Shown here: piece after piece, positions 6,477 to 8,581 of the stretch
Position numbering within the stretch: position 1 is the stretch's first letter
Layout: each line of letters opens with the position of its first letter
Source of the DNA: Ilumatobacteraceae bacterium
GTDB taxonomy: Bacteria > Actinomycetota > Acidimicrobiia > Acidimicrobiales > Ilumatobacteraceae
Assembly: GCA_040402055.1 (NCBI GenBank)
Contig: JBBANJ010000001.1
Span: 9,838 to 73,837, forward strand
Direction: 5' to 3'
Length of the DNA stretch: 64,000 bases
Position numbers and translations under genes: made by a program
The notes under the pieces: generated by a model
The model's database searches: none
What the model was told of the DNA's origin: nothing
The model's input: only the letters and a program-made list of their open reading frames with translations

Positions 6477-7196
6477 CTACAAGTGACGGTCGAACACTCC
6501 GAGGCTTCGCAATCGTCGTTCGAGATGAGATTCCATAGCTTCCATCGCCAATTGACTGACTTCGTGCACTGCTGGAGACTCTGGCAAAGCAAGTGCTTCG
6601 TTCATCCGGCCTCCGAGCACCATTCGCAACACGTCAAGAGCCTGCGATGAGATGGGAACCCCAGAGCGACACGCTGAACAGTGACCCCCACCTTCAAGAA
6701 CATCAAAAGAGACGATATTGCCGGCCTCCCCGCATCGAACACATTCATCAATCTGAGGACCATTGCCTTCAATTGTCAAAAGGCGCCAATAGAAAGCGCC
6801 CAACATCAAAGGCGAGTGCCTTTCGTTGAGAGCGTGTAGGGCGCGGGACAAGACCTCGTACAAATGCGGCACTGGCTCACGATCAGGCGTCAACTTATTG
6901 ACAGCCTCCAGCATTGAGAGACCTTGATTCAGGCGATCAAAATCTGTCCGAAGTGCCGAATGTGTATGAACCAGTCTCACCTCTGAAACTGTGTCGAGAT
7001 CTTTGCCTGATCGAAGAGATACATCGACATGACTCATCGGTTCTAATCGTGCTCCGATTGATGACTTGGTTTTGCGCACGCCTTTTGCAACTGCGCGAAT
7101 CTTTCCGTGCTCTTGCGTTAACAGAACAACCACGCGGTCAGCTTCACCAAATTTGTAAGAGCCCAATACGACAGCATTGTCGCGATACGTACTCAC
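6477..7196 (-). CDS. recO: DNA repair protein RecO
   Basis: 239 aa with an OB-fold N-terminus (AVVLGSYKFGEADRVV) and the zinc motif CVRCG...CSAC. The GTG start overlaps the upstream stop (GTGA). Confidence 0.9.
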   Translation of the reverse strand: MSTYRDNAVVLGSYKFGEADRVVVLLTQEHGKIRAVAKGVRKTKSSIGARLEPMSHVDVSLRSGKDLDTVSEVRLVHTHSALRTDFDRLNQGLSMLEAVNKLTPDREPVPHLYEVLSRALHALNERHSPLMLGAFYWRLLTIEGNGPQIDECVRCGEAGNIVSFDVLEGGGHCSACRSGVPISSQALDVLRMVLGGRMNEALALPESPAVHEVSQLAMEAMESHLERRLRSLGVFDRHL

Positions 7197-7813
7197 GAAT
7201 CGAGCCCACCAAAACGACGATGGCGTCGATTGAAGTCGTCAATTGCAAGTTCCAAATGGTTGGCAGTAAACGCGGACCAAGCAAGATCGATAAAGACAAT
7301 TTCGCAATATGCCAACTCCCAAACCATGGACTCGGGCATGCGATCAGGTGGACCTAGTACGAGGACCAAATCTGCATCTTGTGTCGCAGGCGCCAAAATT
7401 GCTTGGGTCAATGTCTCTTCATCGATTGATTCAGGGTCGACTCCCTGAAGTCGCATTGATTCGACTACCGAGGAGAACCTGCGATGCCCATCGGACGAGG
7501 GATCAACAATAATGGTCTGCTTTGCATTGCGGTGCCATACATATCGCTCGCAATATCCAACATTTTCAAGAACAACTTTGCCCGTTTTCAGCAATTCCAC
7601 TGAAAACCTCACTGCTTCTTCAGCCGACAACTCTTGCCCATGATGTGGCAACAAGGTGACCCAATGTGCTCCACTGCTTTTCACACCAGCGGCTAGGGCA
7701 TCGAGGCGAAGAGTCCAGTCTGCAGTAGACATCTCTGCCCATTGAGCAGGGGTGCCTCCCGAGACGACCACATGGTCTAGTCCGGGGAATGTTGGCAAAG
7801 CACTTTGAGGCAC
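7193..7813 (-). CDS. catalytically degenerate cis-prenyltransferase (UppS) paralogue, NgBR/Nus1-like, retaining the C-terminal RXG motif
   Basis: It aligns end to end with the neighbouring UppS. DGNGRWA is replaced by SGGTPAQWA, FSTENW by LLPHHG, and [11 protein letters not shown] by VLGPPDRMPESM. It ends DDFNRRHRRFGGLDS. A GTG at 7813 has a GGGAG RBS 8 nt upstream. The ORF is open to the TTG at 7858. Confidence 0.7.
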   Translation of the reverse strand: MPQSALPTFPGLDHVVVSGGTPAQWAEMSTADWTLRLDALAAGVKSSGAHWVTLLPHHGQELSAEEAVRFSVELLKTGKVVLENVGYCERYVWHRNAKQTIIVDPSSDGHRRFSSVVESMRLQGVDPESIDEETLTQAILAPATQDADLVLVLGPPDRMPESMVWELAYCEIVFIDLAWSAFTANHLELAIDDFNRRHRRFGGLDS

Positions 7814-7891
7814 ACCACAGTCTCCCACGCACCCACCTCTGAAACCGATGCACGGCAATATGGCACACGGAGAAACTAGGGTTCAGATGCC

Positions 7892-8581
7892 ATGAATGTC
7901 CCTACTCTGCCGAAGCCAATCCACGTGGCCTGCATTATGGATGGCAATGGCCGTTGGGCTAGCCGCAAAGGACTGCCCCGCACAGACGGACACACCGCCG
8001 GCGAAGAAGCGCTTGCGGGTGTGGTTCGAGCATCTGCCAAACGATCAGTTGGTTGGCTCACGGTGTTTGGTTTCTCAACGGAGAACTGGGTTCGCCCACG
8101 CACCGAAGTACGTCACATCTTGTCTCTCCACCGCAAACTGTTTGGTCGCATCAATGAGATGAACGAAAACAACGCTCGCACTCGATGGATCGGGCGTCCT
8201 TTTGCTGAACCTGGTGCTCGCACCCCTGTCTATGTTCAAAAAGCCATTCGAAAAGCAATAGCCGATACAGAGCACAACACAGGTCTTGTTGTAACTGTTG
8301 CTTTCGATTATGGAAGTCGCGCCGAATTAGTTCGCGCAACACAGCGAGCTATGGCAGCTGGCACAGTCACCCAAGACAGCATCACTCAGAACATGTATGA
8401 CCCGTCTATGCCTGCCGTAGACCTTTTGGTACGAACGTCTGGCGAATCTCGAATTTCTAATTTTATGCTGTGGCAGATCACTGGTAGCAAAGTGTTCTTT
8501 ACCGAACGCACGTGGCCAGATTTTGATGCCGCAGAACTTGATCTTGCACTTGCTGCATATTCCACTGGCATCTCGTCATGA
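7892..8581 (+). CDS. uppS: isoprenyl transferase / undecaprenyl-diphosphate synthase-type cis-prenyltransferase (C-terminally short)
   Basis: 229 aa with catalytic blocks [42 protein letters not shown] and WPDFD. It ends ...AAYSTGISS without an RRFG tail. The stop overlaps the dinG ATG (ATGA). Confidence 0.9.
   Translation: [229 protein letters not shown]

Follow-up and report, generated by a model that had tools for sequence, protein, structure and literature searches.

In the cis-prenyltransferases studied so far, it is established that the C-terminal Arg-X-Gly (RXG) tail acts in trans, and the RXG motif has been described as essential across phyla. In the human enzyme DHDDS/NgBR (NUS1) and in yeast Rer2/Srt1-Nus1, a catalytic subunit with all the catalytic residues, but without a C-terminal RXG, works with an accessory subunit that has the fold and the RXG tail but not the catalytic residues. 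The tail of NgBR crosses the subunit interface and completes the DHDDS site, its backbone amides binding the beta-phosphate of isopentenyl diphosphate (IPP) and its Arg contacting a Mg-bound water (PMC7573591; 10.1101/2020.06.03.132209); the kcat of the DHDDS homodimer is about 400-fold below that of the heteromer (PMC7573591). Here we describe two genes with a similar division of residues in 64,000 nucleotides of DNA from an Ilumatobacteraceae bacterium, a freshwater actinobacterium (GenBank assembly GCA_040402055.1, contig JBBANJ010000001.1, positions 9,838 to 73,837), the whole of which we call the window. One encodes a catalytic cis-prenyltransferase of 229 amino acids, UppS (7892..8581, + strand), and the other a degenerate cis-prenyltransferase of 206 amino acids (7193..7813, - strand), hereafter the accessory or "dead" paralogue.

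In homodimeric enzymes the catalytic residues and the tail belong to the same chain. In Rv2361c, a homodimer from an actinobacterium, the Mg/IPP waters are contacted by Arg292 of the counter-subunit (PMC6450523). Heteromers are also known from archaea (M. mazei MM_0618/MM_1083, M. acetivorans MA3723/MA4402 and A. fulgidus Af1219/Af0707), where they serve the synthesis of a C45-C50 glycosyl carrier lipid. The pair in the window is like these in being a candidate two-subunit cis-prenyltransferase of a prokaryote but comes from another domain of life, and it is likened to them by description, not by sequence. A 2026 review lists all characterised bacterial cis-prenyltransferases as homomeric and heteromers only from eukaryotes, Methanosarcina and Archaeoglobus, and a 2025 paper traces heteromeric cis-prenyltransferases back to Euryarchaeota, from which they are held to have passed to eukaryotes. 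Our full-text literature searches, with most subscription journals outside their coverage, returned no bacterial heteromeric cis-prenyltransferase.

We propose, with a probability of roughly three in four, that UppS and the paralogue form a bacterial heteromeric cis-prenyltransferase that makes a polyprenyl diphosphate lipid carrier. The observations behind this proposal are a complementary residue pattern, strict co-occurrence of the two genes, their gene order, purifying selection on both and the positional descent of the paralogue from canonical uppS. From the sequences we infer the physical heterodimerisation, a tail acting in trans and an activity that depends on the partner. Probably, though we hold this a little less firmly, the enzyme evolved independently within Acidimicrobiia through duplication of uppS and reciprocal loss, converging residue for residue on DHDDS/NgBR, and would be the first bacterial example.

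UppS contains each of the catalytic blocks, namely DGNGRW (7940-7957), FSTENW (8072-8089), RTSGESRIS (8432-8458) and WPDFD (8513-8527). It matched PF01255 with E = 3e-63 and 213.8 bits (gathering cut-off 27) and passed the generic model TIGR00055 (193 bits, cut-off 109.55), and it reached none of the NCBIfam equivalog cut-offs of the named UPPS (undecaprenyl diphosphate synthase) models. We built a residue map from E. coli UPPS, whose numbering is used below (the reference sequence is 100% identical to PDB 1jp3_A), 16 UppS proteins and 53 paralogues. The equivalents of D26, N28, R30, R39, H43, S71, N74, W75, R77, R194, R200 and S202 are invariant in the UppS clade (16/16). In this respect UppS is equipped like a self-sufficient homodimeric UPPS, and the accessory paralogue is not.

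The match of UppS to PF01255 covers only profile positions 1-212 of 219, and the protein ends with AAYSTGISS and the stop codon (8552..8581, + strand), where homodimeric enzymes have R-RRFGG. Homodimeric bacterial UPPS carry the RXG motif in the same chain; in UppS nothing stands opposite R241-R242-F243-G244-G245 of the E. coli enzyme. In the hhalign alignment, residues 224-225 of UppS (ST) lie opposite 210-211 of the paralogue (NR of NRRHRRFGG), and RHRRFGG is left without a UppS counterpart; UppS therefore ends about five residues short of the RXG motif. A first-pass annotation, made from the letters of the window, had described UppS as keeping all catalytic blocks and stopping before the RXG tail, with no such tail encoded in the other frames, and both statements hold: no RxG motif is encoded in the three frames downstream of the UppS stop. 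The same 229-residue protein occurs in an independent assembly and in dozens of others, which, together with the lack of RxG in any downstream frame, ruled out an assembly error or frameshift behind the truncation, the artefact that the annotation had named as a possible refutation. In a homologue search with UppS, the matches listed were all near-identical to the query. No third cis-prenyltransferase homologue was found in the 64-kb window.

The paralogue is the mirror image of UppS. PF01255 matched it with E = 9.5e-13 and 48.6 bits (against the same cut-off of 27), at profile positions 144-219 of 219 only, so that the profile alignment proposed in the annotation gave complementary coverage of the two proteins. 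Its homology with UppS nonetheless extends over the full length, as had been claimed (21% identity over 225 amino acids, E = 6e-4; hhalign E = 4.6e-5). At the position of D26 the paralogues have Gly (53/53) and at that of R30 Glu or Gln; R39 is deleted, the FSxENW block is gone and with it the equivalents of N74 and S71, R194 is replaced by Val or Ile (Val in the window protein) and S202 by Pro (52/53). The annotation had listed as lost the Asp/Asn/Arg of the P-loop-like block, the FSxENW block and both Arg residues of RTSGExR. This is correct for the two blocks and for the first Arg, R194; the second, R200, is still Arg in the window paralogue (PPDR) and in 28 of the 53 family members.

The C-terminus of the paralogue, NRRHRRFGGLDS followed by the stop codon, retains the RXG tail attributed to it (terminus RRFGGLDS). 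The tail HLELAIDDFNRRHRRFGGLDS lies at 7196..7258 (- strand), with RRFGG at 7205-7219. RRFGG is found in 53/53 paralogues, counting one RRYGG and one RRFGS, and the whole of HLELAIDDFNRRHRRFGGLDS is invariant among paralogues that are otherwise 53-92% identical. R.RRFGG and WE.AY.E.V show little or no variation even in the most distant set of paralogues. AlphaFold2, run on the alignment of the paralogue family, gave a model with a predicted local distance difference test score (pLDDT) of 83.6 and a predicted template modelling score (pTM) of 0.79; the extreme tail had low confidence, as would be expected if it becomes ordered only on complex formation. In a Foldseek search of this model against PDB, the top 50 hits were all homodimer-type UPPS/cis-prenyltransferase chains, with template modelling (TM) scores of 0.5-0.59 over about 225 columns, which takes in the full length of the paralogue. 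According to the model, the paralogue keeps the UPPS fold, a central beta-sheet with surrounding helices. In contrast to NgBR, it has no membrane-anchoring region at its N-terminus: only 13 residues precede the first core strand, and no stretch of the protein is hydrophobic.

The two proteins are complementary at one more position, that of E. coli E213. In the paralogue, the alpha6/betaF interface segment WELAYCEIVF (7292..7321, - strand) contains Glu171 (7301-7303) as the E213 equivalent. Self-sufficient homodimeric UPPS have a conserved Glu here, in an AY(A/S)E(L)(V/Y)F segment (AYAELYF in E. coli), whereas UppS has Lys200 (in LWQITGSK; 8489..8491, + strand). Among 68 truncated UppS proteins the residue is Lys in 22, Arg in 20, His in 11, Ala in 8, Gln in 2, Thr in 2, Ser in 2 and Tyr in 1, and in none is it Glu (0/68); it is Glu in all 74 readable paralogues (VWELAYSELVF) and in all 76 readable UppS proteins of the canonical outgroup described below. 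The human pair is divided in the same way, with Cys in DHDDS (LLWQTSHSCLVF) and Glu in NgBR (LPWHIRLTEIVS; LTE262IV); both segments were confirmed as exact matches to PDB chains. Judged by these alignments, the split at E213 is a second and independent complementary residue, which the first-pass annotation did not contain. With its interface helix altered from AYSE to TGSK, UppS may be less prone to form homodimers. E213 and H199 of the E. coli enzyme reportedly coordinate a Mg ion close to the dimer interface, and the E213A mutation is said to impair IPP binding.

The likeness to NgBR extends to the former IPP-binding loop. In the paralogue this loop is degenerate (DLVLVLGPPDRMPES; 7328..7372, - strand); its counterpart is DLVIRTGGEHRISNF in E. 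coli and DLVLKFGPVDSTLGF in NgBR. DLVIRTGGEHR of E. coli corresponds to DLVLVLGPPDR in the paralogue and DLVLKFGPVDS in NgBR, so that the paralogue and NgBR have the same changes of G197 to Pro and H199 to Asp.

To survey relatives, as the annotation had suggested, we scanned species representatives (one genome per species); 261 loci matched, and 80 were examined with about 8.6 kb around each. All 68 complete UppS proteins at these loci lack RxG after WPDF, and all 75 paralogues end with RR[FY]G[GS] and have an intact reading frame. The paralogue is present in 68/68 loci with a complete UppS, so that truncated UppS always occurs together with the dead paralogue, and every locus with enough flank has the same gene order, uppS reading towards dinG and the dead paralogue reading away from it towards recO. 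The annotation had read the pair as a heterodimer with a single active site, and the computational checks from its list that we ran all favoured this reading. The features expected of a heteromeric cis-prenyltransferase occur together here: a catalytic subunit without RXG and an accessory protein that keeps the fold and the RXG tail without the catalytic residues. Identity to the query drops to 36% for the paralogue and stays at or above 66% for UppS. The paralogue family comprises 348 clusters at 90% identity with a single query and 2851 at E <= 1e-10 with a profile of distant members, and of the representatives at 50% identity, 38 have E <= 1e-30. The source names are Ilumatobacteraceae, Acidimicrobiaceae, Acidimicrobiia or Actinomycetota metagenome-assembled genomes (MAGs), and the product names, where given, are undecaprenyl diphosphate synthase, undecaprenyl diphosphate synthase family protein or hypothetical.

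A protein that has lost nearly all its catalytic residues and evolves faster than its partner (identity down to 36%, against 66% for UppS) could be a decaying, functionless remnant of the original recO-linked uppS. We regard this pseudogene explanation as extremely improbable and rejected it on the selection data. Nei-Gojobori estimates among the closer loci gave nonsynonymous to synonymous rate ratios (dN/dS) of 0.074 for the paralogue, 0.040 for UppS and 0.22 for recO, and in the last 22 codons of the paralogue dN was 0.02 and dS 1.24, a ratio of about 0.016. The paralogue is a constrained protein under strong purifying selection, and the tail is its most constrained part. The frame intact in 75/75 across deep divergence, the confident AlphaFold2 fold, and the translational coupling to recO with GGGAGA upstream also argue against a pseudogene.

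Some records of the survey carry names at odds with their content. The titles of the locus-bearing MAG records L001, L006, L024, L031, L033, L037 and others read Bifidobacterium breve or uncultured Bifidobacterium sp., and among them is the nearest relative of the window, whose paralogue is 98% identical. These titles look like taxonomic mislabels, since gene content and neighbours match Ilumatobacteraceae. Two further proteins are chimeric: in P0345 the C-terminal half of UppS is joined to a full RecO, and in P0322 the N-terminus of RecO is joined to a dead-type RRFGG tail. Both probably stem from gene-calling errors or frameshifts at the junction where uppS and recO are tightly coupled.

Truncated UppS might instead be a self-sufficient homodimer that compensates for the missing tail and E213 in cis, with the paralogue acting as a regulator, scaffold or prenyl/diphosphate binder. 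Residues that could do so lie, for example, in a loop, GRPF.E.GARTP (8192..8227, + strand), with a 4-residue insertion particular to the truncated UppS clade; the loop is found in all truncated UppS proteins and is missing from the UppS of the canonical outgroup and from E. coli, and its residues G101, R102, F104, T111 and P112 are invariant in the clade. The conserved insertion with two invariant Arg residues, found in this clade only, is a point for a self-sufficient UppS; the loop might stand in for the tail in cis or else make a contact specific to the heteromer. The separation of the two genes in a high-GC relative (L081) is a point in the same direction. A self-sufficient UppS leaves unexplained, however, why the strongest constraint on the paralogue falls on exactly what UppS has lost, the RRFGG tail and E213, and it does not account for the ancestral dimer-interface motif that the paralogue also retains, for the way in which both the tail and the E213 changes mirror DHDDS/NgBR, or for the occurrence of the two genes together in 68/68 loci. 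We consider it unlikely, although it is the most serious of the alternatives.

Several points nevertheless weigh against a heteromer. Apart from the loop, which could in principle replace the tail in cis, the association of the two proteins and an activity needing both are predictions, and the mechanistic role given here to the E213 position is a putative one. A third, canonical cis-prenyltransferase may exist elsewhere in the genome: the search for it covered the 64-kb window and the approximately 8.6 kb around the 80 loci. "Obligate", the annotation's term for the heterodimer, is perhaps too strong a word, because DHDDS homodimers retain weak activity. Tight co-regulation of the pair is not universal either, because other genes part the two in at least one relative, L081. 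There, on a 2.58-Mb contig, truncated UppS (ending with DAALELVD) and the tail-bearing paralogue (ending with RNRRFGGVND) are both present, with a 180-amino-acid gene between dinG and uppS and a 111-amino-acid gene between uppS and the paralogue (4071-4613 and 5637-5972).

We compared the pair with solved structures and with related loci that have a single enzyme. UppS is closest to actinobacterial 7cpn (3e-48) and Rv2361c (6e-43), and DHDDS is further away (9e-27). The profile of the paralogue family matched E. coli UPPS with E = 9e-16 and NUS1 chains with E = 0.18-0.9, and no NgBR/Nus1 chain was among the top 50 Foldseek hits of the paralogue model. As the canonical outgroup we used 80 loci from a metagenome scan begun for a second degenerate family (HVAWV.GG...RRYGG). 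Each has one cis-prenyltransferase gene, which is both catalytic and RXG-bearing in 78/80 (a contig end interrupts the remaining two), and none has a second uppS copy (0/80). The genes are arranged as dinG(-) uppS(+) recO(+) glyQS(+), and GlyQS of these loci is 61-75% identical to that of the window. One cluster of canonical UppS holds proteins labelled Microthrixaceae bacterium and Actinobacteria bacterium IMCC26207; Microthrixaceae and Ilumatobacteraceae both belong to Acidimicrobiales.

In the window, the paralogue sits in the canonical uppS slot directly upstream of recO, and between this slot and dinG lies the catalytic gene, an additional copy in inverted orientation. Its place in the ancestral slot marks the paralogue as a bacterial UppS that has degenerated. 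Consistent with this, the interface motif WELAYSELVF and the tail RR[FY]GG are common to the paralogue and canonical UppS, whereas at these sites the catalytic clade has diverged. A neighbour-joining tree (212 columns with the tail excluded, capped distances, 100 bootstraps) shows both clades as monophyletic; in it the dead clade groups with the canonical outgroup in 67/100 replicates and never pairs with the truncated clade alone. As a distance tree with one long branch, it serves as supporting evidence only.

The derived states that the paralogue has in common with NgBR, namely DLVL.(L/F)GP.D, the loss of R194 and the retention of W207, E213 and RXG, could also mean that the pair is orthologous to the archaeal/eukaryotic catalytic and accessory cis-prenyltransferase subunits (CPT-CS/CPT-AS) and was acquired by horizontal transfer. 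The profile scores given above for the paralogue, the lack of NUS1 among its Foldseek hits, the closer match of UppS to actinobacterial enzymes than to DHDDS, the position of the paralogue in the ancestral uppS slot and its WELAYSELVF motif in common with local canonical UppS all speak against such a transfer, which is unlikely on sequence, fold and gene order, with bacterial UPPS and NUS1/DHDDS as comparators rather than archaeal accessory subunits; we give it a small chance, well below that of a self-sufficient UppS. NgBR orthology of the paralogue was ruled out by the profile scores, by Foldseek and by its grouping with local canonical UppS in the tree. Because the paralogue is not an NgBR orthologue, its likeness to NgBR is convergent. 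The label "NgBR/Nus1-like" in the first-pass annotation therefore fits the residue pattern and the proposed function but not the descent.

The likely origin of the pair is within the class Acidimicrobiia, where a second uppS copy took over catalysis and the recO-linked original degenerated, and the process was likely a subfunctionalisation that converged on the solution of DHDDS/NgBR. The source of the catalytic copy may be a local duplicate or an older paralogue. In this reciprocal loss, the recO-linked copy would have retained the interface, E213 and the RXG tail, and the new copy would have retained catalysis. The heteromer would then work as follows. UppS would hold the sole working active site, with the Mg and farnesyl diphosphate (FPP) site and the IPP-site residues R181, R187 and S189. 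The paralogue would have no catalysis of its own and would supply the cis-prenyltransferase fold, the alpha6/betaF interface segment, the E213-equivalent Glu and the RRFGG tail; it would pair with UppS through the conserved interface and insert its tail into the UppS active site. The resulting complex, a heterodimer or a higher heteromer, would have a single active site, that of UppS, which the tail of the paralogue and probably also Glu171 would complete. The lipid made is presumably a cell-wall carrier of C50-C55. Because the nearest solved enzyme, 7cpn/7cpm, is a (2Z,6E)-farnesyl-diphosphate-specific polyprenyl diphosphate synthase, the genome may also encode a separate short-chain Z-FPP synthase at another locus.

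A split of the same kind may have arisen in other lineages as well, to judge from the sequences of the second degenerate cis-prenyltransferase family. This family (P0311, P0321, P0330, P0335, P0336, P0338, P0361 and P0372; its composition fits high-GC organisms) has an HVAWV.GG N-terminus, lacks FSxENW and has R194 replaced (DLVVVTGGDRRVPD), and it keeps the E213 Glu (WE.AYSELVF) and a RRDRRYGG tail.

Compared with DHDDS/NgBR, the proposed enzyme has the same distribution of Glu and non-Glu at E213 between accessory and catalytic subunits and the same GP.D remodelling of the former IPP loop. It differs in its bacterial host, in an accessory protein that is soluble and without an N-terminal membrane anchor, in a UppS that is merely truncated and lacks the C-terminal helix-turn-helix clamp of DHDDS, in an accessory protein much nearer to bacterial UPPS in sequence and fold, with a likely independent origin, and in a product that is presumably the C50-C55 cell-wall carrier rather than dolichol. 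The homodimers Rv2361c and 7cpn/7cpm are the closest solved relatives of UppS and have the uppS/recO neighbourhood in common with it, but they hold E213 and RXG in one chain, the tail of each protomer serving the other, as with Arg292 of Rv2361c; here both elements sit on a separate, dead chain. Canonical UppS of sister Acidimicrobiia (in a cluster that includes proteins labelled Microthrixaceae MAG and IMCC26207) likewise has the dinG/uppS/recO/glyQS neighbourhood, WELAYSELVF and RR[FY]GG, but is the product of one gene, catalytic and tail-bearing, with no second paralogue in 80/80 loci.

If the proposal is true, the bacterial pair does not fit the view of a Euryarchaeota origin, and the division into catalytic and accessory subunits evolved more than once; the same two elements, the RXG tail and the Glu at the E213 position, would be what passes to the dead partner. 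With both subunits small and soluble, and with sister lineages that keep the unsplit ancestor, the pair is tractable and offers a natural model for the evolution of an obligate heteromer from a homodimer. It also bears on annotation, automated pipelines calling both genes undecaprenyl diphosphate synthase or family protein, and on how the abundant freshwater lineages with this pair make their lipid carrier.

The two genes are divergent and separated by a 78-bp intergenic region (7814..7891), in which both promoters presumably lie. A promoter/terminator scan of this region gave no hit; the sigma-70 consensus had no match, which says little for an actinobacterium. On the left, the accessory paralogue has a GTG start preceded by a ribosome-binding site, GGGAGA, and its stop overlaps the GTG start of recO (6477..7196, - strand; RecO_N and RecO_C domains) in GTGA (7193-7196); glyQS comes next after recO. 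The paralogue is translationally coupled to recO, in agreement with the coupling to recO-glyQS noted in the annotation. On the right, as the annotation also stated, the TGA stop of UppS is fused to the ATG start of a gene for a dinG-like helicase (8578..10473, + strand; DEAD and Helicase_C_2 domains) in ATGA (8578-8581). The independent assembly reproduced the window arrangement exactly.

Downstream of glyQS there are genes for an ABM-domain protein and trpC (IGPS) (window 3967-5121, - strand), as in L081 and L164. era (window 10480-11319, - strand) is convergent to dinG; because the uppS-dinG block sits between them, the usual era/recO neighbourhood is interrupted. A tRNA-Cys gene (GCA; window 52087-52159, - strand) was the sole RNA gene detected by Rfam and ARAGORN in the 64-kb window.

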